Below the pieces are notes generated by a model. That model worked only from the letters and a program-made list of their open reading frames with translations, searched no databases and was not told the origin of the DNA. From an uncultured Clostridia bacterium (GTDB taxonomy: Bacteria > Bacillota > Clostridia > Christensenellales > CAG-917): a stretch of 64,000 nucleotides of DNA. How positions within the stretch are numbered: the first letter of the stretch is position 1; the number at the start of each line of letters is the position of its first letter. Of the stretch, positions 11,687 to 44,110 are shown piece after piece. The DNA is taken from NCBI GenBank assembly GCA_947589395.1, contig CANQAA010000001.1:449-64448 (forward strand), in the 5' to 3' direction. Both the position numbers and the translations under genes were made by a program.

Positions 11687-12643
11687 TTATTCCCTGACTT
11701 CTTCCTCAGGTTCGGCGGGGGCGGAGGGGTCGACGACGGCGGTGGGAGCGCCGTCGGATTGCTCTTCCTTTTTCGCGACAAGGGAGCAGATATAGGAGTC
11801 CGTCTCGCAGTCCACGACGTTGATGGAATATATCGCGACGGGCACGAGTATCAAAAGCGCAAGCACCACGTTGAAGAGGGAGATCAGCAGCGCGAGCGCG
11901 ACGTTCATCACCAGCACTATCACGATAAACAGGAAGTGTTGAAACACGTTGCCCGGCGTCAAAACTTCCTTCAAGGATATCTTTTTGTCGTTGTACACGA
12001 GCCAGGACGTCGCAAGGTTGATGATGCCCGCAAACGTCACGAACGCCACCATCGCGATGAGGCTGTACATCTTGATGAGGGAGACGAGAAAGAGGAACGC
12101 GATGACGCACACCGCCTCGAAAAGGGGCGCGAGCGTGTGCGCGATCACAAACTTTTTGACGTTGCGCTTCGCGACCTTGCGCCTAAGCGCAAATCGAGTG
12201 ACGTAGCTTGCGATGGTTATGCCCGCAGCTCCAAGCGCGATCGCGCCGCCGAGTTGAGCGAGCAACGTGCTTTTGAGATTGGAAACTATCGCGGTGAACT
12301 CCGCCTCAAAACCCGCCGTCGACACATTGAGCGTCTCAAAGAAGTTGACGAGGGTGCTTTGCAACCAATTTACGTCCAGCACTTGTCTCAGAACGCTGAG
12401 AAGCGACCCGTTCCACTCTATCTGCCCGAACGAATACGCAAGGGCGTCCTCAACGGATGCGGAGGACTGCTCCACCGACGTGCCCACAAGTTCCACGAGG
12501 TCGCCCAACGACCCTGCAAAGCTCTGCACCGCCGTCCCCAAAAACATGAAGACGGCAAGCAGCACGAAAAGATATACTATGCCCATAGGAATGAACACAT
12601 AAAGAAGGTTTGAAAAGAAGTTTTTGAGAGAATTTTTTATCAT
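11687..12643 (-). CDS. Hypothetical polytopic membrane protein
   Basis: 318-aa ORF with several long hydrophobic segments and an acidic/proline tail. The antisense ORF of similar length is Arg/His-rich and implausible. Confidence 0.65.
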   Translation of the reverse strand: MIKNSLKNFFSNLLYVFIPMGIVYLFVLLAVFMFLGTAVQSFAGSLGDLVELVGTSVEQSSASVEDALAYSFGQIEWNGSLLSVLRQVLDVNWLQSTLVNFFETLNVSTAGFEAEFTAIVSNLKSTLLAQLGGAIALGAAGITIASYVTRFALRRKVAKRNVKKFVIAHTLAPLFEAVCVIAFLFLVSLIKMYSLIAMVAFVTFAGIINLATSWLVYNDKKISLKEVLTPGNVFQHFLFIVIVLVMNVALALLISLFNVVLALLILVPVAIYSINVVDCETDSYICSLVAKKEEQSDGAPTAVVDPSAPAEPEEEVRE

Positions 12644-12724: not shown

Positions 12725-12775
12725 ATTTTCGCCCCATATCGACAAAATGCGACAAAATTTCGCATACAGGTCGCA
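12725..12775 (-). promoter_or_regulatory. 10-bp phased TGTCG(A/C)-type motifs upstream of the membrane-protein gene
   Basis: Minus-strand TGTCGAT (12738-12744) and TGTCGCA (12748-12754), plus weaker copies at about 10-bp steps. Confidence 0.35.
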
Positions 12776-18109: not shown

Positions 18110-21100
18110 TCACTTGAAATATTCCACAGCGCTTTCAAACAGCTTCATGTCGTAGTTGCCGGGCACGTTTTGATAGAGCCCGCCGCCCTTTCTTTCCGCA
18201 TGTCCCATCTTGCCGAAGATCCTGCCGTCGGGAGAGAGCACGCCCTCTATCGCGTTCACGCTGCCGTTGGGGTTGAAGCGGATGTCCATCGTGGGCTCGT
18301 CCTCGAGGTCGACGTATTGGGTCATAATCTGTCCGTTCTCTGCAAGTTTTTTCACGAGCTCGTTCGAGGCGATGAACTTGCCTTCGCCGTGCGATATCGG
18401 GACGGAGAACACGTCGCCGACGTTGACTTTTTTGAGCCAAGCGGACGCGTTGGAGGCGACTCTCACCCTCACGATACGCGACTGGTGTCTGCCAATGTCG
18501 TTGTATGTGAGCGTGGGGCAGGTCTCGTCTGCGTCGACGATCCTGCCGTAGGGCACGAGCCCGAGTTTGATGAGCGCCTGAAAACCGTTGCAAATGCCGC
18601 CCATGAGCCCGTCGCGCTTTGCAAGAAGCTCCTCGATCTGCTCGCGCACTTCGCCGTTTCTGAAAAACGCCGTGATGAACTTGCCGGAGCCGTCCGGCTC
18701 GTCTCCGCCCGAAAAGCCGCCCGGAATGAACACGATCTGACTGTCCTTGATAAGCGACGCAAACTCGCTCACCGACCTTGCGACGTCGTCCGCGCTGCCG
18801 TTTCTTATCACAAACAGCTTCGCCTTGCCACCCGCGTCCTCGAACGCCTTTTTCGTGTCGTACTCGCAATTCGTGCCGGGAAAGACGGGAATGAGTACGC
18901 TCGGACGCGCGACTTTGACGTGAGCCTCGAACTTCTTCTCGCTCTTGTAGCTCGCCTTGAAGGTCTCCCCCTCGACCTTGATGTTGCAGGGGTACACGCT
19001 CTCGAGCTTGTCCTCGTAAATCTTTTGAAGCTCATCGAGCGGAAGTCTCTCGCCGCTCATCTCTATGACGGGGGCGGATATCGTCTCGCCAAGCAGTTCG
19101 AACTCCTCTGCGTCGTCGACCATTTCGAGCACGAAACTGCCGTAGCAATATTCAAAAACGGCACTTAAAGTGGTGTTTTTGTCATATTCAAACCCGATTT
19201 TGTTGCCAATGCACGCTTTGAACACGCCTTCCGCAACGCCGCCGTACGTCGGGGTGAAACAGCTGACCGCCCGCCCGCTTTGCAAGAGCGTCGAGACGAT
19301 CTCGAAGTTCTTTTTGAGGGAGTCTTTTTCGGGCAAGCCGTTTTTATATTCGGGTCTTATTATGACGACCTTGTGTCCCGCCGCCTTGAAGACGTTGTCT
19401 TTCACTTCGTTCGCCTTTCCCGTCGTCACGGCAAACGAGACGAGCGTGGGCGGGACGTCGATGCTTTCAAACGTGCCGCTCATGGAGTCCTTGCCGCCTA
19501 TCGCCGCGATCTCGAGATCCTTTTGCGCCTCGAACGCGCCCAGCAACGCCTCAAACGGCTGCGCCCAACGCCTCTCGTCCCTCATGGGTTTGAGGAAATA
19601 TTCCTGAAAAGTCAAATACATGTCCTCAAAATGCGCGCCGCTTGCAATCAGTTTACTCACGCTCTCCACGACCGCGAGATACGCGCCGTGATACGGGCTC
19701 TTTTCAAGGATATACGGATTCGACCCCCACGCCATATACGAGACGGAGTCCGTGTGACCGTTTTCAAGCGAGATGAGGTGGACCATCGCCTGCGGAGGAG
19801 TCTGTTGATATTTGCCGCCAAATGGCATGAGCACCGTGCCCGCGCCTATCGTCGAATCGAATCTCTCTGCCAGCCCGCGTTTGGAGCAGACGTTGAGATC
19901 GTCAAGTAACGCCTCGTAGCCCGCCTTGAAGTCCGTCGGGACGCGCTTTGCAAACGGTTTTGCCGCTTGAGATCTGACGCGAATGTGCTTCTCCGCTCCG
20001 TTGGAGTTCAAAAATTCCCTCGAGATGTCGACGATCGCCTTGCCCCGCCACTTCATGACGAGGCGGTTTTCATCCGTGACTCTCGCGACTTCCGTCGCCT
20101 CCAAATTCTCCTCGTTTGCGAGCGCGACGAAGCGCCTGACTTTGTCCGCCTCGACGACCACCGCCATTCTCTCCTGAGACTCCGAGATGGCAAGCTCCGT
20201 GCCGTCCAGCCCGTCGTACTTTTTGGGAACGAGGTCGAGGTTTATCTCAAGCCCGTCCGCAAGCTCGCCTATCGCGACGGACACGCCTCCCGCGCCGAAG
20301 TCGTTGCAACGCTTGATGAGAAGCGTCGCCTCCTTGTTGCGGAAAAGCCTCTGCAACTTTCTCTCTTCCGGAGCGTTGCCCTTTTGAACTTCCGCTCCGC
20401 ATTGCGTGAGGGAGCTTTGCGTGTGCGATTTGCTCGAACCAGTCGCGCCGCCGCAGCCGTCTCTGCCCGTCTTGCCGCCGAGCAAGATGACCCGATCTCC
20501 CGCCTTTGGGACTTCGCGCCGCACGTTCTCCTGAGGAGTCGCGGCGATGACCGCGCCTATCTCCAGCCTCTTTGCGACGTAGCCTTCGTGATACATCTCG
20601 TCCACCTGCCCTGTCGCGAGCCCGATCTGATTGCCATACGACGAATAGCCCGCCGCCGCCGTAGTCACGATCTTTCGCTGCGGGAGCTTGCCCGCCAATG
20701 TGTCCTTGACGGGAACGAGGGGGTTTGCCGCGCCCGTGACGCGCATCGCCGCATAGACGTAGCTCCTGCCCGAAAGCGGGTCGCGTATTGCGCCGCCGAT
20801 GCAGGTCGCCGCGCCGCCGAATGGCTCTATTTCTGTGGGATGGTTGTGCGTTTCGTTTTTGAAGAGCAACAGCCAATCCTCGTCCTTGCCGTCCACGTTG
20901 ACCTTGATCTTGACCGTGCAGGCGTTGATCTCGTCGCTCTCGTCGAGTTTCGCGAGCTTGCCGCGAGCCTTGAGCAACTTCGCCGCGATCGTGCCTATGT
21001 CCATGAGGTTGACGGGCTTTGTCCTGCCAATTTCCTTTCTTGCGGAAAGATAGTCCTCATACGCCGCCTCTATCTCGGCGTCCTCGAACGTGACGTCGTC

Positions 21101-21796
21101 TATCGTCGTCAAAAACGTGGTGTGGCGGCAGTGATCCGACCAATATGTATCGATCATTCGTATCTCGGTGAGAGACGGATCTCTTTTTTCTCCTTTGAAG
21201 TACTCCTGACAGAACTTTGCGTCCGCAAGATCCATCGCGAGCGCGTATTTTTGTCTGAACTCATCAAGTCCTCTCTCGTCGAGCTGCAAAAATCCGTGCA
21301 ATATCTCGACGTCGCTCGGGGTGGGATACTCCGCTTTGAGCGTGCTCGGCAAAGCCTTGTCCGCCTCGCGGGACTCGACGGGGTTGATGACGTAGCGCTT
21401 GATCGTCGCAAGCTCCTCATCCGTGATGTCGCCGTAGATCATAAAGACCTTTGCCGTCCTCACCGTCGGGCGCTTGCCCTTTGAGATGAGCTGAATGCAT
21501 TGAGAGGCGGAGTCCGCCCTCTGATCGAACTGTCCGGGCAGATACTCCGTCAAAAACACCCTTGCGCCGTCCTCTTCGAGGGAGTCGTAGGTCGCGTCCA
21601 TCTGCGGCTCGGAAAACACCGTGCGAACTGCCGTGTCAAACAGCGCCCTGTCCATATCCTCCGCGTCGTAGCGGTTCAAAAGGCGCACTCTTGTCACGCC
21701 CTTGATCTCGAGCAGTTCGTTGATGTCGAACTTCAGCGCCTTCGCCTCGTTGTCAAAGCCGGGTTTTTTTTCGACAAAAATTCTGAAAACCATCAT
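18110..21796 (-). CDS. purL: Phosphoribosylformylglycinamidine synthase, single-chain form
   Basis: 1228 aa. IDTYWSDHCRHTTF and NHPTEIEPFGGAATCIGG motifs, with a C-terminal glutaminase domain (GICNGFQ). Confidence 0.95.
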   Translation of the reverse strand: MMVFRIFVEKKPGFDNEAKALKFDINELLEIKGVTRVRLLNRYDAEDMDRALFDTAVRTVFSEPQMDATYDSLEEDGARVFLTEYLPGQFDQRADSASQCIQLISKGKRPTVRTAKVFMIYGDITDEELATIKRYVINPVESREADKALPSTLKAEYPTPSDVEILHGFLQLDERGLDEFRQKYALAMDLADAKFCQEYFKGEKRDPSLTEIRMIDTYWSDHCRHTTFLTTIDDVTFEDAEIEAAYEDYLSARKEIGRTKPVNLMDIGTIAAKLLKARGKLAKLDESDEINACTVKIKVNVDGKDEDWLLLFKNETHNHPTEIEPFGGAATCIGGAIRDPLSGRSYVYAAMRVTGAANPLVPVKDTLAGKLPQRKIVTTAAAGYSSYGNQIGLATGQVDEMYHEGYVAKRLEIGAVIAATPQENVRREVPKAGDRVILLGGKTGRDGCGGATGSSKSHTQSSLTQCGAEVQKGNAPEERKLQRLFRNKEATLLIKRCNDFGAGGVSVAIGELADGLEINLDLVPKKYDGLDGTELAISESQERMAVVVEADKVRRFVALANEENLEATEVARVTDENRLVMKWRGKAIVDISREFLNSNGAEKHIRVRSQAAKPFAKRVPTDFKAGYEALLDDLNVCSKRGLAERFDSTIGAGTVLMPFGGKYQQTPPQAMVHLISLENGHTDSVSYMAWGSNPYILEKSPYHGAYLAVVESVSKLIASGAHFEDMYLTFQEYFLKPMRDERRWAQPFEALLGAFEAQKDLEIAAIGGKDSMSGTFESIDVPPTLVSFAVTTGKANEVKDNVFKAAGHKVVIIRPEYKNGLPEKDSLKKNFEIVSTLLQSGRAVSCFTPTYGGVAEGVFKACIGNKIGFEYDKNTTLSAVFEYCYGSFVLEMVDDAEEFELLGETISAPVIEMSGERLPLDELQKIYEDKLESVYPCNIKVEGETFKASYKSEKKFEAHVKVARPSVLIPVFPGTNCEYDTKKAFEDAGGKAKLFVIRNGSADDVARSVSEFASLIKDSQIVFIPGGFSGGDEPDGSGKFITAFFRNGEVREQIEELLAKRDGLMGGICNGFQALIKLGLVPYGRIVDADETCPTLTYNDIGRHQSRIVRVRVASNASAWLKKVNVGDVFSVPISHGEGKFIASNELVKKLAENGQIMTQYVDLEDEPTMDIRFNPNGSVNAIEGVLSPDGRIFGKMGHAERKGGGLYQNVPGNYDMKLFESAVEYFK

Positions 21797-23080: not shown

Positions 23081-24265
23081 TCAATGATGGAAAAGTCTCA
23101 TTCCCGTGAAGCACATCACCATGTCGTGCTTGTTTGCCGCTTCTATCACGAGGTCGTCTCTGAGCGATCCGCCCGGCTCTGCGACGAAGCTCACGCCGCT
23201 CGCCGCCGCCCTCTCGATGTTGTCCGAAAACGGGAAGAACGCGTCCGAGCCGAGCGACACGCCCGTTATGCTATTGAGATACTCTTCTTTTTCTTCCTTC
23301 GTGAAGGGTTCGGGGCGCACGGCAAAGTTCTTTTGCCAGACGTCGTCGCCCAAGACCTCGCTCGGATCGTCCGAGAGATAGAGGTCGATTATGTTGTTCT
23401 TTTCGGGACGGCCTACGCCGTCTGCAAATTGCAAATTCAGCACTTTATCATGCTGTCTCAGATGCCACAAGTCCGCTTTTTGCGCTGCGAGGCGGGTGCA
23501 ATGTATTCTCGACTGCTGCCCCGCGCCAACGCCTATCGCCTGTCCGTCCGTCGCAAAACACACGGAGTTGGACTGCGTATACTTGAGAGTTATGAGCGAG
23601 ATGATGAGGTCCGTCGCCTTGTCGTCGGGCAGGTTTTTATTGCTCGTGACGACGTTGTCAAGCAAGGCTCTGTCTATTTTGAAATTGTTTCTTCCCTGCT
23701 CGAAAGTCACTCCGAACACCTGCTTGCGCTCTATCTCCTGCGGGACGTAGGACGGATCTATCCTGACGATGTTGTAGCCGCCCTTGCGCTTGGTTTTGAG
23801 AAGCTCGAGCGCCTCTTTCGTATACGCGGGAGCGATGACGCCGTCGGAAACCTCTCTTGCGATTATCTTTGCCGTTGTCAGATCGCACTCGTCGGAGAGG
23901 GCGATCCAGTCCCCAAACGAAGACATTCTGTCCGTTCCTCTCGCGCGAGCGTACGCAAGCGCAAGCGGGGAGTCGTCAAGACCCTCTATGTCGTCCACAA
24001 AACAGCTCTTTTTCAGCCTGTCGGACATGGGCTTGCCAATCGCGGCTGAGGTGGGCGAAACGTGCTTGAAACTTGTCGCCGCCGTGAAGCCGGTGTTGTC
24101 CTTTATCTCCTTGACGAGCTGCCAGGAGTTGAAGGCGTCGAGAAAGTTGATGTATCCCGGTCTGCCGTTCAAAATTTCAACAGGCAAGTCGCCGCCGTCC
24201 GCCATAAAGATGCGCGCGGGTTTTTGGTTGGGATTGCACCCGTATTTCAAAGAAAATTCGTTCAT
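23081..24265 (-). CDS. purH: AICAR formyltransferase (transformylase-only PurH homolog, no MGS-type cyclohydrolase domain)
   Basis: LKYGCNPNQKPARIF start, 394-aa length and the C-terminal FTGMRLFHH ending are typical of stand-alone AICARFT. Confidence 0.88.
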   Translation of the reverse strand: MNEFSLKYGCNPNQKPARIFMADGGDLPVEILNGRPGYINFLDAFNSWQLVKEIKDNTGFTAATSFKHVSPTSAAIGKPMSDRLKKSCFVDDIEGLDDSPLALAYARARGTDRMSSFGDWIALSDECDLTTAKIIAREVSDGVIAPAYTKEALELLKTKRKGGYNIVRIDPSYVPQEIERKQVFGVTFEQGRNNFKIDRALLDNVVTSNKNLPDDKATDLIISLITLKYTQSNSVCFATDGQAIGVGAGQQSRIHCTRLAAQKADLWHLRQHDKVLNLQFADGVGRPEKNNIIDLYLSDDPSEVLGDDVWQKNFAVRPEPFTKEEKEEYLNSITGVSLGSDAFFPFSDNIERAAASGVSFVAEPGGSLRDDLVIEAANKHDMVMCFTGMRLFHH

Positions 24266-24295
24266 ATTCCACCTCTACATGATTTTTTGTCTCTT

Positions 24296-24540
24296 TTCGC
24301 GGATTTTTGTCGCATTTTGCGCTATCCGTCGAGCTCTGTCGATATATGTCGCCTTTTGCTCGCATTTTGCGGTTTCGCTCGACCTTTGTCGTTTTATGTC
24401 GAGCCTTGCCGCTTTCGCTCGAGCTTTGTATCTTTTTGTCGAACATTGTCGATGTTTGTCGACTTATGATCTCGCGGGTCTTGTCGCACTGTGTCGGTTT
24501 AGCTCGATTTATGTCGATTTGCGTCGATTTTTATCGTTTT
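24296..24540 (+). repeat. Degenerate 10-bp tandem array (about 24 units, consensus TTGTCGAnnT) between purO and the AICARFT gene
   Basis: TGTCG or near variants start at 24308, 24327, 24337, 24347, 24387, 24397, 24437, 24447 and 24457. The register then shifts to 24482, 24492, 24512 and 24522. An exact TGTCGAA lies at 24437-24443. Confidence 0.8.
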
Positions 24541-24558
24541 TGAAGCCTGTGTTGAGTT

Positions 24559-25305
24559 TTACTTCTCGTTTTTGTTGAAGAGCGCCCTCTCGCTTTCTCC
24601 GGTTTTAAGGTCGTACGCGACGCAATAAAGGGAGATCTTGTTGTTTTCATCCAGCGCGTTCCATATCTCGTTTGCAAAGGCGCGGACGTCGTTTGGAATG
24701 ATAACCCTCTCGGGTTCCCCCTCGAAGGAAGGAAGCGGATTTCCGTCCTTTTTGTATGTGTGGATAAAGTGCCCCACTCCGCTCACCGCCTCGAAGTCGA
24801 AGTAAAAGCGATTGCACTTCTTTCCCTTGCCGTCAGCACTCTTCAAAATGGACAGCTCGTAGGAGAACTTGTTGTCGCTCGCCCTCTTGCCAAAGTGCAA
24901 GATCGCGCTTATGCGAGGGGTAAAGTTGGGGGCGTCCGGCTCGAAGCAGCGCGTGTTGAGGGCATGACGGAAGCACTTGCCCGCCTTGAGGCTCTCCTCT
25001 ATAGTGTCCGTTTGATCTCCGTTTGTGACGATGACGTCCTTGCCTCCTTCAAACTCCACTTCCTTCACGGGGGAGTAGATGATGAGGGACGCGTCCTGCA
25101 CCTTGCTCTCGTCGAACGGAAGCGTTTTGAGTTGTCCGTTTTCAAATTCTCCAAACACTCTGTTGCGGCTGTTTTCGCTTCTTCCCATTATGAAATAAGC
25201 AAACACCGCCTTCTTGCCGTCGGAGGATTTTCCAACGACGATACCTCTTCCGGGATACGCGTTGTTTTGCAGCGCTCTTGCCATGCTCTTTCTGACGTAG
25301 CTCAT
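24559..25305 (-). CDS. purO: IMP cyclohydrolase, PurO (archaeal) type
   Basis: NAYPGRGIVVGKSSDGKKAVFAYFIMGRSENSRNRVF is the characteristic PurO-family N-terminus. Confidence 0.85.
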   Translation of the reverse strand: MSYVRKSMARALQNNAYPGRGIVVGKSSDGKKAVFAYFIMGRSENSRNRVFGEFENGQLKTLPFDESKVQDASLIIYSPVKEVEFEGGKDVIVTNGDQTDTIEESLKAGKCFRHALNTRCFEPDAPNFTPRISAILHFGKRASDNKFSYELSILKSADGKGKKCNRFYFDFEAVSGVGHFIHTYKKDGNPLPSFEGEPERVIIPNDVRAFANEIWNALDENNKISLYCVAYDLKTGESERALFNKNEK

Positions 25306-25416: not shown

Positions 25417-26037
25417 TTACAACTCTTTTTGCTCGCGCCTTTGGGCGAGCTCTTTCGCGACCTTTTCCACAGACTCGGGCAAAATTTGCCACTCCGCCTC
25501 GCGCATGACCCGCTTTTGCAAGCTCTCGGGGGTGTCGTCGTCTCTCACCTCGACCGCTTTTTGCGCGATGATGGGGCCGCCGTCGCACTCCTCAGTGACA
25601 AAATGCACCGTCGCGCCCGTCACCTTCACTCCGCGAGCAAGCGCCGCCTCGTGCACATGAAGACCAAACATTCCCATGCCGCAAAAACTCGGAATGAGCG
25701 CAGGATGCACGTTGATTATGCGCCCCTTCCACTCGCTCACGAATCTCTCGCCAAGCACGCTCAAAAAGCCCGCGAGCACGACGAGCTCCACGCCCTCCGC
25801 CTTGAGAGTTTGCATCATTTTTTCTTCCCTCTCGGCTTTTGACATCTCGCGCCTGTCGAAAACGGCGGTCTTTATGCCTTTTTGCTTTGCCCTTTCAAGC
25901 GCGAACGCGCCACTATTATCGCTCACGACGATCTTTATCTCTCCGTGCTCGAGCTTGCCCGCCTTTTGAAAGTCGATGATCGCCTGCAAATTTGTGCCGC
26001 CGCCCGAACAGAGAACGGCTATCTTCGTTTTTGTCAT
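25417..26037 (-). CDS. purN: Phosphoribosylglycinamide formyltransferase
   Basis: IAVLCSGGGTNLQAII and INVHPALIPSFCG motifs. Confidence 0.93.
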   Translation of the reverse strand: MTKTKIAVLCSGGGTNLQAIIDFQKAGKLEHGEIKIVVSDNSGAFALERAKQKGIKTAVFDRREMSKAEREEKMMQTLKAEGVELVVLAGFLSVLGERFVSEWKGRIINVHPALIPSFCGMGMFGLHVHEAALARGVKVTGATVHFVTEECDGGPIIAQKAVEVRDDDTPESLQKRVMREAEWQILPESVEKVAKELAQRREQKEL

Positions 26038-28625: not shown

Positions 28626-28706
28626 ACAAATCTCCTATAATATTATCTTTGTCAACAAAACTTGCGCTTTATCTATCGTTTTTGATTTGCTAAAGCGCCT
28701 GTTTTG

Positions 28707-29414
28707 TCATTTTGAGGTGACTCTTCTGAAGATCTCGCGGTAGGCGTCCTCAACGCCGCCCAAGTCCCTTCTGAAGCGATCCTTGTCCAGCTTCTCGCCC
28801 GTCTTTGCGTCCCAATAGCGGCAGGTGTCGGGGGAAATTTCGTCCGCGAGCACGATCTTGCCGTCAAATCTTCCGAACTCCAATTTGAAGTCGATGAGGC
28901 GCACTCCCAGCTCGAGGAAATACTCCTTCAAAACTTCGTTGACCTTGAAAGCATATCTCTTGATGGTCTCGATCTCTTCCTTTGTCGCGAGCTTGAGCGC
29001 TAAGGCGTGATACTCGTTGATGAGCGGGTCGCCGAGCTCGTCGCACTTGTAGGAAAACTCGATGGTGGGCTCGTCGAAAATTATGCCCTCTTCAACGCCG
29101 TATCTCTTTGCAAAGCTGCCCGCAGAAACGTTGCGGATGATGACCTCGAGCGGCACGATCTTGACTTTTTTGACGAGCGTGTCCCTGTCGGATAGCTCCT
29201 TCACGAAATGCGTGGGAACTCCGCTCTTTTCAAGCAATTGCATGAGCATGTTGGTCATGCGGTTGTTGACGACGCCTTTGCCCTCTATCGTGCCCTTTTT
29301 GAGCCCGTTGAACGCGGTCGCGTCGTCCTTGTAAGACACGATGCAAAAGTTGGGGTCGTCGGTTGCGAAAACCTTTTTTGCTTTGCCCTCATAAAGTTGT
29401 TCTTTCTTTTCCAT
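28707..29414 (-). CDS. purC: Phosphoribosylaminoimidazole-succinocarboxamide synthase
   Basis: [10 protein letters not shown]...[14 protein letters not shown]. Confidence 0.95.
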
Positions 29415-29430
29415 AATATCTCCTCTCGGC

Positions 29431-29925
29431 TTATGCGCCGAATTTTTTGCTCACTTCCTCGTCCTTTTTGAGGACGTCGCGCCTTGCGTCTTCCCTTGCT
29501 TTGAGAAGCCTTTGATACAGCTTTTCGTCGTCGAGCGCGATGATCTGCGCCGCAAGATACGCCGCGTTTTTTGCCCCGTCGATCGCAACGGTCGCAACGG
29601 GAATGCCCGAAGGCATCATAACTGTTGAAAGCAGCGCGTCCATGCCGTCAAGAGAGGCGGATCTCACGGGGATCCCGATGACGGGAAGCGCCGTGTTTGC
29701 GGCAAGCGCTCCCGCAAGGTGCGCCGCCATGCCCGCCGCCGCGATTATCACGCCAAAGCCGTTGGCTCTCGCGTTTTTTGCAAACTCTCTTGCCTCTTCG
29801 GGGGTGCGATGCGCAGAAAAAACGTGCGCCTCAAACGGCACTCCAAGCTCTTCAAGCACAGCCGCCGCCTTTTCGACGACGGGAAGGTCGGACGCGCTCC
29901 CCATGATCAATCCTACTTTTTTCAT
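29431..29925 (-). CDS. purE: 5-(carboxyamino)imidazole ribonucleotide mutase
   Basis: [29 protein letters not shown]. Confidence 0.95.
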
Positions 29926-30075
29926 ATTCCTCCAAAATTAAAGAGCAGTTTTCCCGCGTGCAAAAACTGCTCTTTATCTCGTTATATTTTCAACTCCTCT
30001 TCTTTTCTCCTTACGGAGAAACCCATGCAAGTCTGTCATGCCTATAATATAATATAAACGAAAAACATAAGTCAA
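29926..30075 (-). promoter_or_regulatory. pur operon promoter plus about 110-nt leader with a terminator-like hairpin abutting the purE RBS
   Basis: TTGACT (30070-30075) with a TATATT/TTATAT -10. Hairpin TTTCTCC-GTAA-GGAGAAA. A 12-bp perfect stem AAGAGCAGTTTT/AAAACTGCTCTT (29941-29974) is followed by TAATTTTGGAGG. Confidence 0.45.
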
Positions 30076-30241
30076 GCATTTGACATCCCTTGCGCGGGTA
30101 AATTTTATTTTTCTTCGCCTCTCTCCCTGCCCCTCGCAAAATGCGGGACTGCGGGCTTTGCCTATCGAATCTCAGCCCTTTATCCCCGCAAAATCACACC
30201 ATTTATCAACCGCCTCGCTCTGCTCTTTTCAACAGCTTCGC

Positions 30242-30427
30242 TCAGTCCTTTATCAACGTCGCAAGCCAATTGCCCTCGCCGATCTTGCGATTGAACTTGT
30301 CGTAGGTGCAGCGGCCGTCGAAGTAGCCGAGCCTCGCTCCGTACTTGTCGTAGACGGTCTGCCTTGCGCCCTCGTCCCTTATCTCGCCCAACTTTCTTCC
30401 ATACTTGTCTTTCAACACCTGAACCAT
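30242..30427 (-). CDS. Small hypothetical protein with three internal (Y/K)DK(Y/F)GxxLG repeats
   Basis: 61 aa containing KDKYGRKLGEI, YDKYGARLGYF and YDKFNRKIGEG. Preceded by GAGGAGG. Confidence 0.5.
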   Translation of the reverse strand: MVQVLKDKYGRKLGEIRDEGARQTVYDKYGARLGYFDGRCTYDKFNRKIGEGNWLATLIKD

Positions 30428-30591
30428 GCTTTCCTCCTCAAATTTGCATTATGTATTGTGTTTTTGACTCAACCTATCATATATAAACGGCAGACGCTCG
30501 TCGATCGTCCACCCACTCTATCTCCCGCTCGACCTTCCAAAAAGTCTTGCCGTCAAAAAGAGGCGCTCCTCATAAACCCCTGCTAAGCTAA

Positions 30592-30873
30592 CTATCCGAA
30601 TAGCACTTCTATGTCGTTTTCCGCTTCATATATCGTTTTGCCATTGAAAATCTTTGCCTCTTCAAAAGCGGTGACGCATTCGCGCCTATCTTTGGAAGTA
30701 TGTGCAAACAGCGTTTTGGAATCTTCCTCTATTGTGCAAACTTGCAAAGTATACAATTTGCCCGTTTCATCGCTAAAACCGGATATGATATACCTCCCGC
30801 CACCGCAAACAATTTCCTTTTCGGGATTGTAGTATAAGTCGCTTATAAATTCATTCAGAGTATTTCCTTTCAT
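30592..30873 (-). CDS. Small acidic hypothetical protein (last gene of the AT-rich islet)
   Basis: 93-aa ORF lying 24 nt after the preceding gene, on the same strand, in AT-rich DNA. Confidence 0.55.
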   Translation of the reverse strand: MKGNTLNEFISDLYYNPEKEIVCGGGRYIISGFSDETGKLYTLQVCTIEEDSKTLFAHTSKDRRECVTAFEEAKIFNGKTIYEAENDIEVLFG

Positions 30874-30897
30874 GGCATTCCACTCCTTTGAAATATT

Positions 30898-31461
30898 TTA
30901 TACTTTTCGTATAGTCCTTTCTGTCGACACGTCAAATTCCCCGTCATTATTCCAAAGGCTCAAATCTGAAAACAGTGGACAAACATCATCAATGCTTTTG
31001 TCGACATTCACATATATAACTTCGTCAAACCATACATGGCTCTTTGAAAATATAAACGAATGGTTTTCCGTCCTGACTATCAACGCCATGTCAATAACGA
31101 TATCTATGCCCTGTTCAGCACATTTGATCGTATCGGATACAATCTCAACGCTCGCTACAAGCTCGTCTACGTCATACATTTTTACGCCTGCGCCTTCCAA
31201 ACCGGGCATAAACGGATGGGCTGTATCGCTTATGCTACATGAAAATTTTGCCGCTTCCTCATATGGAACGTCCTCATTTTCAAACATAGCGATCTCTTCT
31301 TCCCCGTTTTTAAGCAATATGGACGTGCCGTCAAAATTGAGACGAGCCACACAATAAGACTGCCCTTCCATAGAATCGTCAGTTTCCACCGACAAAAACC
31401 GTTTGCCTACAATGCCTTTGAACATTTCTATCATATTTTCATCAAATTGCCATATAGTCAT
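30898..31461 (-). CDS. Acidic hypothetical protein (candidate cognate immunity/antidote)
   Basis: 187-aa D/E-rich ORF. Its ATG overlaps the stop of the upstream basic protein (ATGA). Confidence 0.6.
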   Translation of the reverse strand: MTIWQFDENMIEMFKGIVGKRFLSVETDDSMEGQSYCVARLNFDGTSILLKNGEEEIAMFENEDVPYEEAAKFSCSISDTAHPFMPGLEGAGVKMYDVDELVASVEIVSDTIKCAEQGIDIVIDMALIVRTENHSFIFSKSHVWFDEVIYVNVDKSIDDVCPLFSDLSLWNNDGEFDVSTERTIRKV

Positions 31462-31838
31462 TTTCTTTCCTCCTCAAAATGAATTTTTTGTGGCTTAATC
31501 TTGCCAGATTTAATAATTCGAATCTCAACCGCAGGACTTCCGGATTTAGAATATAAACGAAAGACCACTCTTGATCCGTCAGAAAAAATGGTTTGTTTCC
31601 CACGCCCATTAGCTAATTGTTCTTCATGTCCGCCTTTACTTATCTGCTTATAAAAGTGCTTTGCAGTTTCTATTGGTGTTGTACTACATATCACTCTGAT
31701 TCCACTATTCTTACCAGGTTGTCCAAAATATCCTTTTTGTGTTATAGGATACTTTTTTGACATTCTGTTTGCATTAGCGTCAATTCTACTTATACTACCT
31801 TTTGTGCCATAAAAATGGCCGCTATTTCCTGCTCCCAT
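31458..31838 (-). CDS. Small basic protein resembling a stand-alone polymorphic-toxin C-terminal module
   Basis: 126 aa, K/R-rich. N-terminal GNSGHFYGTKGS junction-like motif. C-terminal FRLYSKSGSPAVEIRI...KIHF pattern recalled from toxin C-terminal domains. Family not verified. Confidence 0.5.
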   Translation of the reverse strand: MGAGNSGHFYGTKGSISRIDANANRMSKKYPITQKGYFGQPGKNSGIRVICSTTPIETAKHFYKQISKGGHEEQLANGRGKQTIFSDGSRVVFRLYSKSGSPAVEIRIIKSGKIKPQKIHFEEERK

Positions 31839-31839
31839 A

Positions 31840-32508
31840 TCAGCCTACCTCCTTTTTATGAGATAAACTGAAATAGCTTTCATACTGCATTATGCTGACG
31901 CCATACATTTCTGCCAAACAGAATATTCTTGATGGTGCGCTTCCGTAAACTACAACATTTTTAGGCTGTAATTTGTTCAAGATATAATCAAATCCTTTGA
32001 TAAACATATGTTTGTATTCTTGAGATTTGATACAGCCATGCGTTCCTACAGCTATTGTTGAGTTACATTCCACCCCAAGACAAGCCAATTCGTATGTACG
32101 TTCATCTCCCCAACGTACATTTGGGATCGTCGGGATTCCATTATCATTCAGCCATGCGCCGACAGCCCTGCCGCGATATGTATTCCACTCTTGCATTACA
32201 AGCGGCATATCGTAATACAAACTGTAGTCCGGAGTGATTACTCCATCAAACTGTTTGAGAACAGATAGATACCTCTTGGGATCATTCCAAAAGGGCTCTA
32301 TCTTTTCATCATGCTCATAAAAAACCACGAACCCGGTGTGATCTTTTTCTGATTTCGCATGAGAGAACGGGACAAGTCGCGTAGGTAAAATGTCGGTTGT
32401 TTTCACACATGGTATTTCCAGCTCACCATCAAACCGAGCATGTTTCACCATGTATGCGTGAAAAACATCCTTACACCCTGTCCCATAATGTACAATAGTT
32501 TTTTGCAT
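31840..32508 (-). CDS. DUF4417-like protein
   Basis: FYEHDEKIEPFWNDPKRYL..FDGVITPDYSLYYDMPLVMQEWNTYRGRAVGAWLNDNGIPTIPNVRWGDERTYE matches my recollection of the DUF4417 signature. RBS AGGAG. Confidence 0.6.
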   Translation of the reverse strand: MQKTIVHYGTGCKDVFHAYMVKHARFDGELEIPCVKTTDILPTRLVPFSHAKSEKDHTGFVVFYEHDEKIEPFWNDPKRYLSVLKQFDGVITPDYSLYYDMPLVMQEWNTYRGRAVGAWLNDNGIPTIPNVRWGDERTYELACLGVECNSTIAVGTHGCIKSQEYKHMFIKGFDYILNKLQPKNVVVYGSAPSRIFCLAEMYGVSIMQYESYFSLSHKKEVG

Positions 32509-32623
32509 ATTATAGCTCCTATAACTTTAGTCAACCTTTGGTTGCCGTCAAATACTTGACATAAAAGACAGAGAGTGCTATAATATGCATATTCTAGAGC
32601 CATTATGGCACTTCTGAATGGCG

Positions 32624-32657
32624 CATAAAAGTTGCTGCAACAACTTTTATGCGCTGT
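32624..32657. terminator. Perfect 14-bp-stem hairpin between the ImmA and DUF4417 genes
   Basis: GCGCATAAAAGTTG-ctgcaa-CAACTTTTATGCGC. The T-run lies only on the plus side, so a role as a minus-strand terminator is uncertain. Confidence 0.4.
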
Positions 32658-32671
32658 TCTTTTATGTAGTG

Positions 32672-33199
32672 TTAATATGTTTTTCTTTTTTCAGCAGCCT
32701 TTTCGGATACACCATATGTAGTCATTATTTGTTCAACGGACATATTTTGTGTCGCCTCATATGGCATCATCACCTCGCCTGCTAATGCTTTTACTATCCA
32801 TTCAAGCCTACGATAACATGGCGTATCTTTTGCGATTATTGTACGAGAATAAATTGGTTTGAAACCAAGTTTATCAGCAAACACATGCATTATTTCATGC
32901 ATGATATGCATTCTGTATCCGCCAATATTGTTTTCTGCCGCTCCTTTATATACTGAATTTTTGATTTGTATTATATACCCATACTCGTTTTGATTACATT
33001 GTGCCGGCACGTTACATGGAAGTTCATTATCATCTAAAATTTCATAGTGTACATCCTCAAACCCTTCTATATCCGGCAACATATCAAGCATTGCAACAGG
33101 ATCCATTCGGGTATCTTGTCCAACCTTTGTAATTGAGCGAAATAATTTAGCATATAAGCGCAGTTCTTTGCGATTTGTCGGTTTAGTTTCGTAATCCAA
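32672..33199 (-). CDS. ImmA/IrrE-family zinc metallopeptidase
   Basis: HEIMH (HExxH) motif in MHIMHEIMHVFADKLG. 175 aa, and abuts the upstream XRE gene with no intergenic gap. Confidence 0.8.
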   Translation of the reverse strand: MDYETKPTNRKELRLYAKLFRSITKVGQDTRMDPVAMLDMLPDIEGFEDVHYEILDDNELPCNVPAQCNQNEYGYIIQIKNSVYKGAAENNIGGYRMHIMHEIMHVFADKLGFKPIYSRTIIAKDTPCYRRLEWIVKALAGEVMMPYEATQNMSVEQIMTTYGVSEKAAEKRKTY

Positions 33200-33562
33200 T
33201 CACTTTTCCTCCTTATTTAATAGGTTGAATATTGCATTAGCCGTTTCGTCATCCAGATCTTCAAACGAACGCTGAAATTGCAAAGCAACTCTTCTTTGAG
33301 ATTGTGTTGCGCTCGTCAAATCAATTTTTGCCTGTGTCTTGGATTCTGCTATGGCTTGTGATAATTCTTGCTGCTCTTGTACCGACAATGAATAGTGTTT
33401 GGTAATAATATCAAACCAATTATCAGGGACATTTCTCTTCCCTGTTTCCACTGCAGAAACAAATGGGAGTGTAACTCCTAACAATTTTGCCGTATTCGAC
33501 ATTGTTTCTTTATGTCTGATTCTCTGTATCCTCATAAACTCACCAAACTTTGTGTATGCCAT
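33200..33562 (-). CDS. XRE-family HTH regulator (ImmR-like partner of ImmA)
   Basis: FMRIQRIRHKETMSNTAKLLGVTLPFVSAVETGKRNVP is a typical HTH. RBS AGGAGG. Confidence 0.85.
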   Translation of the reverse strand: MAYTKFGEFMRIQRIRHKETMSNTAKLLGVTLPFVSAVETGKRNVPDNWFDIITKHYSLSVQEQQELSQAIAESKTQAKIDLTSATQSQRRVALQFQRSFEDLDDETANAIFNLLNKEEK

Positions 33563-33603
33563 GCTTCGTTCCTCCTAAATGGTCTGTTACCATCTTTACT
33601 AAA

Positions 33604-33632
33604 ACTATAACATATACAATTTTAGATGTCAA
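33604..33632 (-). promoter_or_regulatory. Sigma-A-type promoter of the XRE-ImmA islet
   Basis: TTGACA, 17 nt, TATAGT on the minus strand, about 40 nt upstream of the XRE start. Confidence 0.6.
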
Positions 33633-33846
33633 CAATAAAGCTAAAATAAGTTAAGTTTTTTAATCACTTTTTTAAACAGCGGTAAAATAGGTGTTCTGTT
33701 TGTGTGGAGTGGGGAGCGCACTCATGTTACAACAAACGCTCCATATATAATTTAGCATAACGAACAAGCAAAAACAATCCGTATTTGAGAATTTAAAAAG
33801 CGGCTTGACAAATCGCCAAACCGCCTCTTGTTGCCCCCGCATCAAA

Positions 33847-36018: not shown

Positions 36019-36055
36019 TGTCGAATTTTGTCGTTTTTCACGATTTTTTGACGAA
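36019..36055 (+). promoter_or_regulatory. Three helically phased Spo0A-box matches upstream of spo0A
   Basis: TGTCGAA 36019-36025 (exact 0A box), TGTCGTT 36029-36035 and TGACGAA 36049-36055. TATAAT lies at 36271-36276. Confidence 0.55.
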
Positions 36056-36305
36056 TCGCAATATCTTGTGTTTAGTGACATTTTCGCGCCTGCATCTTGT
36101 GGTCGAAAAATTTTTTACTAAAAAATGCTTGCCATTTTTCACCTTTTATTCTATTATTTTTTCATCAATAAAATACAAATTATGCGCACCTTTGTCCGGT
36201 TATCCGAAATTCAGACAGCTTAAGACGTTCCCTGCCATATTCCGCAGTTTTTCGCCACGCTATCTGGCGCTATAATACTCACAAATCTTATAAGGAGTGT
36301 GCAAC

Positions 36306-37046
36306 ATGACAAAATCCATTCTGATTGCAGATGACAACCAATCCCTTGCATTGAGCCTCAAGGACTTTCTCTCCTCAAAAGAGGACTGCTCCGTCGTCGG
36401 CGTCGCGTACAACGGCGCGGAAGCCCTCAAAGCGGCGGAGGAACTTTCTCCGGATATCCTCATATTGGATATAGTTATGCCGGAGCTGGACGGCTTCGGC
36501 GTGCTCGCGGCGCTCAGCTCCAAAAAGCCCGCCGTGATCATGATGTCTCAGCTCGCTTCGGACGGGTTCGTGCAAAAGGCGATGCAATACGGGGCGAGCT
36601 ACTTCCTCGCCAAGCCTTTTGACTACGCCGTCCTGTACAGGGTCATTGAGGAGCTGACGAGCGAACAAGCGCCGTCCAAGCCGCGCGACAAGCGCAACAA
36701 GACGCTCGACGAGAAGATCGCCAACCTCTTCATCTCGGTGGGCATACCCGCGCACATAAAGGGCTATCAGTTCTTGAGAGAGGCGATAAAGATGACCATC
36801 GAGACGCCCGACATCATCAACGCGATCACCAAGCGGCTGTATCCCGGCATCGCGGAGAGGTACGGCACGTCCGCGTCTAAGGTCGAGCGCGCCATCAGAC
36901 ACGCCATCGAGGTCGCGTGGAACAGGGGCAAAATCGAGAACATCAACAACGTTTTCGGGATCAAGATCTACTCTCCCAACGAAAAACCCACAAACGGGGA
37001 GTTCATCGCTCTTATCGCCGACAAACTTCTGCTCGAGAGCGCGTGA
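36306..37046 (+). CDS. spo0A: Sporulation master response regulator Spo0A
   Basis: Receiver domain (ILIADDN, DILILDIVMPELDG). The diagnostic Spo0A C-terminal domain is present: PAHIKGYQFLREAI, SKVERAIRHAIEVAWNRG and KPTNGEFIALIADKL. Confidence 0.96.
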   Translation: MTKSILIADDNQSLALSLKDFLSSKEDCSVVGVAYNGAEALKAAEELSPDILILDIVMPELDGFGVLAALSSKKPAVIMMSQLASDGFVQKAMQYGASYFLAKPFDYAVLYRVIEELTSEQAPSKPRDKRNKTLDEKIANLFISVGIPAHIKGYQFLREAIKMTIETPDIINAITKRLYPGIAERYGTSASKVERAIRHAIEVAWNRGKIENINNVFGIKIYSPNEKPTNGEFIALIADKLLLESA

Positions 37047-38682
37047 TCACGCGGTATGCGCCCGGTTTTATACGCAATACGCACGCGCGCAACAATCAGA
37101 TCATAACGCGTCGCGCACGCGTAGGCGTAAATGTCCGCACGGAACATGCAAGCTGTAGGGGTTTACACGGGCTGTAGGGTTTATGCAAGCTATTGGGACA
37201 TATAAAAGCGATAGAGTTCGCGGCATATTGACGAAAGACGTCTTCCTGCCGATCGCAAAAAACGAGGGAATGCGAGACGGAAGGATGTCGCCGTACAAGC
37301 GTATGACGCGCTCTGTGACTTGAAGCCTTGATAGGCTCACGCTGCCCTTTTATGGCCGCTAAGGCGCAAAGATGTCGCTGCAACTTGCGCGTGTTCGCGA
37401 ACGTATGCGCCCGCCGTATGACGAAAATCATGTTGTACGGCGTGTTGCTGCTTGCGCTTGCTCGCGATCGCATGCGCGATTGTCGCGGCAGAGGCAATTC
37501 CTTTTGCAAAACTCGGGGATATGGGGAGGCAACTGCTCATGGAGTATACAAACCCAACGCCATATCCGGCAGGGGAGACCACACTCCCCGCCTCCCCTAT
37601 CCCGCAATCGCAAAAAGGGCGTTCTCGCGACATGTCTTGATAGGCAGTCTTGACGCGTGCATTCAAATGGGCGATTTCCTCTTGCGTCGCTTTGCATGAG
37701 GGCGTGTTACGCAATGTTTTGTGCGTCCTACGGTTTTGTTTTGCATAGCCGACGAGCTTCGGGGCTTTTTAGCAATGCATAGTCTGGTCGACGACCGTAG
37801 GAGATTTTGAGCAACGTCGCTTACAAAACGGCTTTTCAACTATGCGACTTTTGAAAGCGCTTATGTGCGCCGTCTCGTCTTACTTAAACGAGTCTATATG
37901 CGAGGCGCTTTTTGCAACGAAGTAGATAAGAACGATTTATATTTAAATTAGCTAATGTTTATTGATATTTTAGTATACTTGTGAACTATTATGCGCTGTT
38001 GAAAGCGTCGCCGTCTATTCTTTGCATTATTAGTCCAATCCAATGTCCTCGATTGAGCTGTTGTGCGCAGTCAACATCGATTCCGATTCGCCATTAAACT
38101 TGTCCTATGCCACTGACTGCAATGCGCCAATCAAGGTAATCGCTGAGTATACAAATGGGAAAGTCGCGTTGCTTGCGCACTCGATTTTAGTCAATTACCC
38201 GTCTGATGTAAGTCATAAAGACAAAAGCTGAACTGTGCGGTAATAGCAATTCAAGCGAAAAAAGCGTAAGTACAAGCAAAATAATACCCATAACATATGG
38301 AATAACTTGCAAAAACAGAACTTACTTCCATAAAATTATTAGTCAGAGCACAGGTCAATTACAGATATTATTGCGATAAAGCTTAGAACTAAAACATTGT
38401 AAAAATACAAAATTCAGGCAAGAAAAACGCCAATAAACAGTGATGTTTTACAAAAAATTAACAAACTACAAGCTCGGAAACGGCTGACGAGACAAGGCAT
38501 CGCCATATATAGAATATTGTGAAACAAATTCAAAAAAATCAAGAAAATTTGCGAAACATTCTCTGAAAAATCGGGGTGAAAAATTTGGGTGAAAGGAGCT
38601 CAAAATTTTTCAAGGAGAAAGAACGAAATTTACTTTTCGGTGAGCAAAACACCTACTATTTAGTGGCATTTTCGCTGTTTTC

Positions 38683-38698
38683 GGTTTCACGTGAAACG
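38683..38698. promoter_or_regulatory. parS site (14/16 match to consensus)
   Basis: gGTTTCACGTGAAACg compared with TGTTNCACGTGAAACA. Confidence 0.75.
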
Positions 38699-38713
38699 GA
38701 CGGAGCGGATTTT

Positions 38714-38729
38714 TGTTCCACGTGAAACA
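38714..38729. promoter_or_regulatory. parS site (16/16 match)
   Basis: TGTTCCACGTGAAACA is identical to the Bacillus-type Spo0J/ParB binding consensus. Confidence 0.85.
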
Positions 38730-39533
38730 TTGACTTTTCTTGGAATTTTCCGCCATACTGACCCGAAAACCCCGCTGCGCGACAGATCGACTTATGATAG
38801 GAGTTTTTCTCTCTTGCGCACAATAAAATCCCAAACACGTTAAGCTCCTCAGCTTGGGACGACCGGCTCAAATAATGCCGCTGTATTGATGGCAACTGCC
38901 CAAACGATTTATGACCGACTGTCTTCTTTTTTTATACCCTTCTTTACGGCTTTTGGGCTTACAGTCACACTTTTGAACAATATTTTGATATTTTGCCACA
39001 AAACTGACCGCTCTGCAGACTGTCACGCTTCTTTTATGTAAAAAACCGGCCTATAACATCTTTCAGACCATATGTTGAGAAACTGAGAAAATCAATCATT
39101 TTTATTTCGCCATTCATGACCTGTTTATCGTCCAAATTTCACCGGAAACTATTGATTTTGTTGCCAAACACTATACTACAAAGACAAATTGGACGAACTG
39201 CTTAAGAGAAAGATGACGGCAATTATATGAATAAGCAAGCGCGTGTGCGGGCAATATTTGTACTACGCAAATTTGTCATAGTGTGAGCAACCAAGTTTGC
39301 TTGTGAGCGATCTCTAAGGTTATTGACGAGCAAAAGCGCACACAAGTACAATTTATCAATTGGCAAATTTGCTGTCAAGGGGCTAATCGGTGGGGCAAGT
39401 AGCTAAAGAATATAAGGGATTACGGGGATTCACATGATATATCGCCGAGAGCGGTCTTGCAGTCAATTTTGCGCGTTTGACAAAACCTCGATTTCTTCAC
39501 TATTCAGTGGCATTTTTGAGACAATTTCCGCGA

Positions 39534-39549
39534 TGTTTCATGTGAAACA
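39534..39549. promoter_or_regulatory. parS site (15/16 match)
   Basis: TGTTTCATGTGAAACA embedded in the longer palindrome cgcgaTGTTTCATGTGAAACAtcgcg. Confidence 0.75.
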
Positions 39550-40790
39550 TCGCGCAATATTCGATAGTTGCGCACCACTTGTATAATAAACAACACGGGT
39601 TACAACGGTAAGTATCGAACTGCAAGCGTAGCACATTATGGCAAATATATCATATGACAGGAGTTGTGCATAACGCCAATGTTATGCATGGCAGCAAAAC
39701 ATAGCGTGTGCCGGCTGACAGAGCGCGTGGTGTCAATCATAACGTGTGACGGCATGCTCCATGCGAGACATGGTAGACAGGACATTTCGACGGCAGCAAA
39801 AAGGCTCAATTCAAACTTTGTGAATTACAGCAAATGTTCTGCATGATCTAAAGCAGCGCAGAAATTGTAAGTATTGTGAGCGCCAAGCAAAACGTGTGGC
39901 AAGCAAAGCATGTTGGGCAATATATAATTCGTGCAGGACAAGAAGGAAAAACTTAAGACGAACAAAAAAGGTGAGCGCAAAAATCATTGAGACGAGAGAA
40001 ATTATAGTGAAAGATGTGAGGGGACGATATGTTTGGCATGCGGCATGTAAATAAGTGAGACATGTGTCAAAAGGAATGAATGAGAAGCGTGAGGGGCAAT
40101 CGAGGATCATATGCCGACACCTTCCCTGCAATGTAATAGACTCGTGAACTTGTCAAAAGTCGAAAAGATCCGTGCGCAAATGAATGCGGGTAGCGATCTG
40201 AACAGTGCAAAACTGTTTACACATGTATGTGCGAGCGAATATTAGCGTGGCCGTGCATGTTGGGTGACGACGAGCGGGGACGAGGCATAAAGGCAAAAGG
40301 CATGCGGGTTTAACAGGTTGGCGGGCATATAAAAACGAGAAAGCGGGCGAGGACGGTGCGCAAAGTCGACATGCGAGACGAACGAGCGGACGAGCCGAGT
40401 GAAAAAGTTGATGCAAGAGCCGCCACGTTCGACATCAAAAAACGAAGACTTGAGTGGAGAGCGGACGGATATTGCATGCCAAAGCCGAAAAATGTCGAGC
40501 GATGGTTGGGCGAAATGGGCGCTAAAAAGCGAAATTCGGCGTGAGGAGCGGAAAAATCAAGGGGTTTGGGGAGTGGGGCGGAAAGCAAAATTACAGGGAA
40601 TCGGAATTTTCGCGGGATGAGGAATGTATCGGCTTCGCGGAAAAATTCTCGACAGAAAAATTTGCCGTATGCTCGAAGCAAAATTTGCCGTATGTTTGGG
40701 ACAAAATTTTACCGCTCGACGAGTAGTCTTGCTCTTCTCCTGCGCACAATCTTGCGCATCGCTCGTTCCTTCGAATGGTTTAATGAAAAT

Positions 40791-44101: not shown

Positions 44102-44110
44102 GAGGCTATT

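Follow-up and report, generated by a model that had tools for sequence, protein, structure and literature searches.

The 293-bp gap between two purine-biosynthesis genes of a rare, uncultured gut Clostridia species is filled by a degenerate tandem array: ~25 head-to-tail units of 10 bp, each resembling the 0A box recognized by the master developmental regulator Spo0A. Our leading explanation, to which we give roughly even credence, is that the array is a young, species-specific, copy-number-variable minisatellite of 0A-box-like units, and that the binding of Spo0A~P predicted for it would be a by-product. This rating reflects two observations: no relative examined has the array, and within the species part of it can be dispensed with. 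The array lies in the 64,000-nt stretch of DNA that was analysed (the window), between two genes of the pur operon:

24286–24541, + strand: degenerate 10-bp tandem array, ~25 units, consensus tTGTCGAnnT
24559–25305, − strand: purO-like IMP cyclohydrolase gene (PF07826, E 9e-57), directly upstream of the array in transcription
23081–24265, − strand: AICARFT gene, a purH without the MGS/IMPCH domain (PF01808, E 3e-54), downstream of the array

All pur genes of the window are on the − strand. The series purE (29431–29925), purC, purF, purM, purN (25417–26037) and the purO-like gene is followed by the 293-bp gap, the AICARFT-only purH, purD and purL (18110–21796), and then by gyrB and gyrA. The AICARFT gene retains a ribosome-binding site (GAGGTGG, 24269–24275) just 5′ of its ATG, and no intrinsic terminator was found on the − strand across the gap. 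Elsewhere around the operon (28626–30080), searches at gathering thresholds gave neither a purine riboswitch nor any other Rfam family; across the whole window, the tRNA is the only Rfam match.

The anatomy of the array is best seen on the + strand, in rows of ten counted from 24286 (on the mRNA strand, the unit reads AnnTCGACAa). The motif YGTCG begins at 24308, 24327, 24337, 24347, 24387, 24397, 24437, 24447 and 24457, and then at 24482, 24492, 24512 and 24522; the 25-bp step from 24457 to 24482 amounts to a 5-bp register shift inside the array. An exact TGTCGAA occurs once, at 24437. The sequence-only reading had described a 10-bp array of ~24 units filling the purO–AICARFT gap, with this register shift and this exact 0A box; every coordinate it listed was recovered, and a recount gives ~25 units in register.

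At lags of 10 and 20, array self-identity reaches 0.49 and 0.54, compared with ~0.25 at other lags. The best 150-bp lag-10 self-identity (0.513) is the top value of the 64-kb window, ~6 sd above the window mean (0.248, sd 0.043), and across 722 kb of sequence (the window plus 87 loci) the purO–purH array is the only lag-10 array that is not AT-rich. Tandem Repeats Finder reports periods of 10, 20 and 50. The longer periods are accompanied by block duplications of the kind expected of a variable-number tandem repeat (VNTR) or minisatellite: 40-nt blocks are present in seven copies at 60–78% identity, recurring at 20-, 45- and 50-bp spacings, and a pair of 48-nt blocks is 79% identical. The clearest of these is:

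24304–24401, + strand: higher-order duplication, two 48–50-bp blocks of five units each, 79–81% identical

Although the units are mutually only ~50% identical, what they conserve lies mainly in the TGTCGA core and in one flanking T, instead of being evenly distributed. Within the core, the C and the G of the CG step are each kept in 20 of the 25 units, T1 in 20 and G2 in 16; the flanking T is kept in 22, the two spacer positions are near background, and the second A of TGTCGAA (A7) is an A in only three. The best-kept positions correspond to C4, G5, G2 and T1 of TGTCGAA. The bases that Spo0A specifically contacts in the 0A box are G2, C4 and G5, and the specificity of Spo0A from C. difficile is the same as that of B. 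subtilis Spo0A (PMC3485338). Eight boxes in the array have at most one mismatch to TGTCGAA, all of them on the + strand, compared with 0.25 in shuffled sequences and a window average of 0.56 per 293 bp per strand. With up to two mismatches there are 15 (3.0 expected), of which one is perfect, and 14 units have the form NGNCG in the same strand. Nowhere else in the window are near-consensus boxes so densely clustered (9 per 300 bp, the mean being 1.1), and the boxes of the array's left block share one phase (R 0.98 at 10.0 bp). The strongest candidate site is:

24437–24463, + strand: best predicted Spo0A site, TGTCGAA-cat-TGTCGAT-gtt-TGTCGAC, three consecutive boxes with 3-bp spacers

Footprinted Spo0A sites in phages phi29 and Nf combine perfect and imperfect boxes separated by 3 bp, which gives a 10-bp period, and the phi29 origins have four consecutive 0A boxes (PMC2731898). 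The array shares with such sites (i) a TGTCGAA core with G2, C4 and G5 intact, (ii) a head-to-tail arrangement of boxes 3 bp apart, with a period of 10.0 bp, and (iii) a host Spo0A with a conserved recognition helix. It departs from them in that it is not conserved in related genomes. As to placement at a promoter or origin, where occupancy would have regulatory effects, the array is intercistronic, with one weak promoter-like match (0.6 expected) and no terminator. Core conservation, the 10-bp register, the Spo0A helix and an excess of tandem box pairs in the window together justify the label "phased Spo0A-box-like units". To this extent the earlier proposal of a Spo0A-related array stands; the roles that it added—regulator sink, nucleation platform, transcription roadblock—are extrapolations from sequence.

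The candidate binding protein is encoded in the window itself, and two further tandem-box sites accompany it:

36297–37046, + strand: spo0A, open reading frame starting at GTG 36297 (249 aa)
36019–36058, + strand: four 0A-like boxes phased at 10/11 bp (TGTCGAA, TGTCGTT, TCACGAT, TGACGAA)
12744–12760, − strand: tandem pair TGTCGCA-ttt-TGTCGAT, upstream of a 318-aa gene (11687–12643)

The 246-aa Spo0A protein in the database starts 9 bp further downstream, at ATG 36306. The window Spo0A matches PF08769 (E 1.4e-40), and its recognition helix is near-identical to those of the Bacillus structures 1LQ1 and 1FC3, with conservative changes only (...TSASKVERAIRHAIEVAW... aligned to ...TTASRVERAIRHAIEVAW...). 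The four-box site lies ~250–290 bp 5′ of the spo0A start and includes TGTCGAAtttTGTCGTT at 36019/36029; the pair upstream of the 318-aa gene reads TGTCGCAtttTGTCGAT at 12754/12744 on the − strand. These are the two TGTCG-N5-TGTCG pairs that the window contains outside the array, where 0.15 would be expected, and both tandem sites thus exist as the sequence-only reading had reported. The boxes upstream of spo0A are identical in three contigs of the same species. In relatives at 76–79% Spo0A identity, no tandem boxes are present upstream of spo0A, and by eye these upstream regions have no obvious likeness to that of the window.

The purO–purH junction was then compared among relatives, using one genome per GTDB species: 80 loci, with AICARFT relatives at 71–86% identity. 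A purO-like gene is upstream of AICARFT in 74 of the 80, and in 70 of these 74 the junction either measures at most 39 bp (3–39 bp, 63 loci) or holds other genes (seven loci, with gaps of 0.5–2.4 kb that leave room for them). For L027, L033, L036 and L046, the true spacer is ~25–80 bp, as the stop codon is counted within the printed gap. The remaining four gaps (71–189 bp) have no lag-10 signal; in three of them (L034, L062 and L068; 152–189 bp), the sequence is unrelated to the array. Indeed, a lag-10 signal was found in none of the relatives' gaps that are long enough to measure, and no 0A-box run in those inspected. In the closest lineage—88% protein identity, six contigs drawn from a 5.8-billion-protein collection—the junction is 18 bp long and consists of stop codon, ribosome-binding site and start codon. 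The array is absent, then, from all 80 species loci and from the six sister-lineage contigs.

Two of the longer gaps are of interest in themselves. L068 (3811–4001) has its own non-coding purO–purH insertion with a repeated AAATCATGA motif, and L062 (3839–4001) one that is GC-rich and hairpin-like; neither is related to the array. Since relatives bear unrelated non-coding insertions of 71–189 bp at this junction, an insertion here is evidently tolerated.

Within the source species, exact-protein look-ups yielded a single contig besides the window that spans the array junction: L081, from ENA assembly ERZ27249407 (Logan contigs of the species end in purC, short of the array). Over ~330 aligned bases, L081 is 100% identical to the window except for one missing block:

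24489–24552, strand not assigned: interval of a 58-bp block comprising the register-shifted right-hand 5–6 units, found in the window but missing from L081

The block is flanked by the direct repeat ACACAG (− strand), so that its placement is ambiguous by 6 bp. It corresponds to 5.8 units, or about a quarter of the array. The two alleles known (the L081 contig having ~2x coverage) thus differ in copy number between strains, as is the rule for VNTRs and minisatellites, and since the missing block contains the register-shifted units, the register shift is a scar, left by a block that is subject to gain and loss.

Absence from relatives, the shorter L081 allele and the internal block duplications together identify the array as a lineage-specific insertion, ~275 bp long, with minisatellite dynamics, probably expansion and contraction by slippage or unequal exchange. 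A strain-specific expansion absent from relatives was the outcome that the sequence-only reading had named as fatal to its proposal, and this is largely what the comparison of purO–purH spacers returned: the array occurs in the source species, in two lengths, and in no relative examined.

A plausible history can be outlined from these observations. The array would have grown at the purO–purH junction as blocks of 10, 20 and 50 bp were duplicated, through strand slippage or unequal recombination, and would be transcribed through as an A-rich spacer. The pur operon would tolerate it, because the spacer is read through without a terminator and purH has a ribosome-binding site of its own. As the units keep the 0A-box core in a head-to-tail 10-bp register, the array is predicted to be bound by Spo0A~P; it is probably capable of this, and binding would be strongest at the triple box (24437–24463). 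Once occupied, the array would impede RNA polymerase on its way from purO into purH-purD-purL. In our judgement, any such binding would follow incidentally from the sequence and would not have been selected as a function. The minisatellite reading is supported, among other observations, by the clean 58-bp indel between 6-bp direct repeats, in otherwise 100% identical sequence from two independent assemblies. Three points stand against it. Firstly, conservation confined to the core is what constraint on a binding motif predicts, unlike the uniform decay of neutral sequence. Secondly, the near-consensus boxes are on one strand, and those of the left block are in one exact phase. Thirdly, just two alleles of the array are known, the second from a contig at ~2x coverage, and the search of this genome covered 64 kb.

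The first two of these points are the main argument for a second explanation, which we regard as tentative and on balance unlikely: that the array is a selected Spo0A~P platform, on which cooperative loading over ~25 phased sites blocks purH-purD-purL elongation or controls an internal promoter. Purine synthesis would then be switched off at sporulation entry, with copy number tuning the threshold. That diverged units are conserved precisely at the bases read by Spo0A, on one strand and in one phase, is its principal support. It is also consistent with the conserved recognition helix, with the tandem boxes at two other promoter-like regions (one of them upstream of spo0A), and with the 3-bp box separation, an architecture known in up to four consecutive copies from phi29 (PMC2731898). 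A platform of this kind is harder to reconcile with the distribution of the array, which is missing from all relatives, the sister lineage included, and a quarter of which is dispensable in another strain. Furthermore, only a single box is perfect, A7 is not kept, and the tandem boxes upstream of spo0A are themselves not conserved in relatives at 76–79% Spo0A identity. The internal promoter has one weak sigma-70-like match in its favour, with a reversed box as the −35 (24342–24314, − strand); this is within chance (1 match, 0.6 expected). A more elaborate form of the idea, in which ~20–25 sub-consensus boxes make up an evolvable, selected landing pad—filament-like loading of Spo0A~P acting as a developmental roadblock, and repeat number tuning its threshold between strains—we consider doubtful.

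The geometry of the array bears on how any bound protein would be arranged. The T-tracts are indeed phased with the units, as previously proposed, at 10.0–10.2 bp (R 0.55–0.66), but not at the 10.4–10.5-bp helical repeat (R 0.10–0.35). Because phase coherence is gone at the latter, strong planar intrinsic curvature, which had been predicted from the T-tracts, is not supported; a local bend at the purH-proximal end alone (24283–24318) is plausible. With a strict 10.0-bp period, bound proteins would spiral round B-DNA instead of sharing one face.

Several other identities were considered and set aside. A blastn comparison with 72,556 plasmids and 50,697 phages gave no match to the array, which also contains no inverted repeats. 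Given this lack of inverted repeats and of plasmid or phage likeness, and with no other lag-10 array in 722 kb, we reject a dispersed repeat or MITE. The 64 kb of this genome and the 87 loci hold no second copy, contrary to what a dispersed intergenic repeat (REP/BIME, MITE or MIRU-like) would show; a generic dispersed repeat was another outcome that the sequence-only reading had named as fatal to its proposal, and it was not observed. A coding sequence is rejected because the open reading frames of the array have no Pfam match and because no reading frame can be reconciled with a period of 10 bp. A DnaA-box or origin reading is likewise rejected: 24266–24558 contains no DnaA box (TTATCCACA) with one mismatch or fewer, and hence no datA-like cluster of such boxes.

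Scans of other contigs place the array against a background of short 10-bp repeats. Three TGTCGA at a 10-bp period were found at 60 viral loci, with at most seven units in phase; many are phi29-like, with 3–4 boxes and varied spacers. A 3+2 TGTCG pattern was found at 24 viral loci; with the permuted cores TCTGG and GTGCT, the same pattern gave 36 loci each. Since the permuted cores are commoner in viral contigs, TGTCG arrays are not enriched among generic 10-bp arrays, and such arrays arise readily without a special core. Among the metagenome matches listed for the 3+2 pattern, most are perfect micro- or minisatellites of other organisms. The contexts of phage and metagenome TGTCG arrays are heterogeneous, with terminase-like HTH and HNH genes in one case and unrelated chromosomal genes elsewhere. 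Neither the viral contigs nor the metagenome matches listed include a degenerate array of some 25 units comparable to this one in an operon of a Firmicute, and full-text literature searches gave no long degenerate 0A-box array inside an operon.

The viral contigs merit separate mention. In many of them (L097, L103, L108, L117, L119 and L134 among others), three or four perfect TGTCGAA boxes follow one another at exactly 10 bp; these runs have varied spacers and are often beside promoter-like or terminator sequences. From these sequences, the phi29-type arrangement of Spo0A boxes appears to be widespread in uncultured phage contigs. A different type, (A/T)ATGTCG(C/T)nnA in 6–8 units with a 10-bp period, is found in L166 (2880–2979), L152 (13005–13129), L164 (1198–1320) and L278 (699–824). 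In L166 it is directly upstream of an HTH gene (terminase-small-subunit-like), followed by an HNH gene and a 589-aa open reading frame, and may be a packaging or iteron site.

The window also contains the chromosomal origin region (43334–50011), with parA, parB, an MFS gene, recF (−), dnaA (+) and dnaN (−), so that dnaA has the opposite orientation to both dnaN and recF. From this position, the array is ~23 kb from dnaA, and the pur operon is co-directional with replication. DnaA boxes with at most one mismatch are clustered at 50165–50232, with more at 51316 and 51861. Immediately downstream of spo0A, 4.6 kb (37047–41704) contain no open reading frame that reaches 150 aa, and two other assemblies of the species (contigs L362 and L363) have no called gene here. 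This segment has a GC content of 0.43–0.46, the minimum of the cumulative GC skew, AT-rich 18/19-bp repeats (40800–41200), no Rfam match at E ≤0.1, and three parS sites where 0.12 would be expected: 38714–38729 (a perfect TGTTCCACGTGAAACA), 38683–38698 and 39534–39549.

Three further features of the window were recorded. Between purE and a PepSY gene (29926–33846, compared with 602–1778 of L362), the window is ~2.7 kb longer than L362 and L363; the extra segment has a GC content of 0.41, contains a DUF4417 gene (31840–32508) and an M78/IrrE-like peptidase gene (32672–33199), and is probably a mobile-element insertion polymorphism. A 45-bp unit is present in ~1.9 tandem copies at each of two places 54 kb apart and in opposite orientation (170–255 and 54209–54294), and may belong to a dispersed repeat family. 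Finally, 52813–53262 contains a 220-bp tandem duplication, its two copies 93% identical, that overlaps the 3′ end of a tRNA-Asn (53242–53317, − strand).

Proximity to the origin may be relevant to a third explanation, in which the array serves a different DNA-binding protein as an iteron- or centromere-like site (comparable to ParR-parC, TubR-tubC, phage terminase sites or Rep iterons). Type II/III plasmid centromeres are built of direct repeats spaced by about one helical turn; the array is origin-proximal, in a window that holds parA, parB, three parS sites, dnaA and dnaN; and phage contigs carry 6–8-unit TGTCG(C/T) arrays of 10-bp period, one of them 5′ of a terminase-small-subunit-like HTH gene. 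We nevertheless consider such a site improbable. No cognate gene adjoins the array, whose flanks are purO and purH, and it lacks mobile context, plasmid or phage similarity, and DnaA boxes. Moreover, the canonical parS sites that serve the chromosomal ParB system are located elsewhere.

Still more improbable, in our view, is an RNA-level element: an A-rich (AnnUCGACA)n tract in the pur mRNA that acts in protein binding, processing or stability and uncouples the distal genes. The array is inside a transcription unit, its mRNA strand is 44% A, and the fold energy of the sense strand is modestly below that of shuffled sequences (z −2.7). The antisense strand folds at least as well (z −3.3), and a modest gain on both strands is what the repeated palindromic TCGA would give. 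The strand-specific fold, terminator and family match of a structured RNA are all lacking, with no Rfam match for the array even at E ≤1 (on which ground a known RNA family is rejected), and there is no conservation on which covariation could be tested. An assembly artefact or chimeric join is scarcely credible: the window does derive from a metagenome, in which repeats are easily misassembled, but the independent ERZ27249407 assembly shares the junctions of the window and matches 235 bp of its array exactly, and both flanks continue into intact genes.

Among known systems, the array is best filed as a variant of two: tandem 0A boxes and bacterial VNTRs. The tandem 0A boxes of phi29 and Nf promoters and origins resemble it in their TGTCGAA-like core, head-to-tail order and 3-bp spacers, in the occurrence of imperfect boxes beside better ones, and in the conserved Spo0A helix of the host; tandem 0A boxes are also found at abrB, spo0A and B. 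subtilis oriC. Known 0A sites differ in having 2–4 consecutive boxes at promoters or origins, conserved within phage groups, whereas the array has ~25 0A-box-like units between biosynthetic cistrons, is not conserved and varies in length. Bacterial VNTRs and minisatellites, which include the intercistronic MIRUs of mycobacteria, resemble it in their head-to-tail repeats between operon genes, copy-number differences between strains, higher-order duplications and absence from related species. The array departs from these in its unit (10 bp, as opposed to ~40–100 bp), in being a single locus within 64 kb rather than a dispersed family, and in units that are far more diverged outside the shared core than those of a typical recent VNTR.

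Two other classes were compared with it. Iteron arrays and centromeres of plasmids and phages (ParR-parC, TubR-tubC, Rep iterons, terminase sites) share the multiple direct repeats at a helical turn, but the array is without a cognate gene or mobile replicon and lies inside a housekeeping operon. Regulator-titrating clusters, such as E. coli datA and the DnaA-box clusters of B. subtilis, are conserved, consist of canonical DnaA boxes and have demonstrated titration. What they share with the sink suggested earlier is the notion of a chromosomal binding-site cluster; the array has no DnaA boxes and is not conserved, titration by ~25 sites is implausible, and a sink of that size would be unlikely to deplete an abundant regulator.

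The significance of the array depends on which explanation holds. If Spo0A~P does load along it, no longer natural run of 0A boxes would be known; a master developmental regulator would, unusually, be acting from within a biosynthetic operon, and changes in copy number would let its effect evolve as if by a dial. Should the array be neutral, which we think more likely, it would show that short motifs resembling transcription factor sites can grow into long phased arrays inside essential operons and leave them unbroken. A neutral array would also be a caution for motif-based prediction of regulons in metagenome-assembled genomes.
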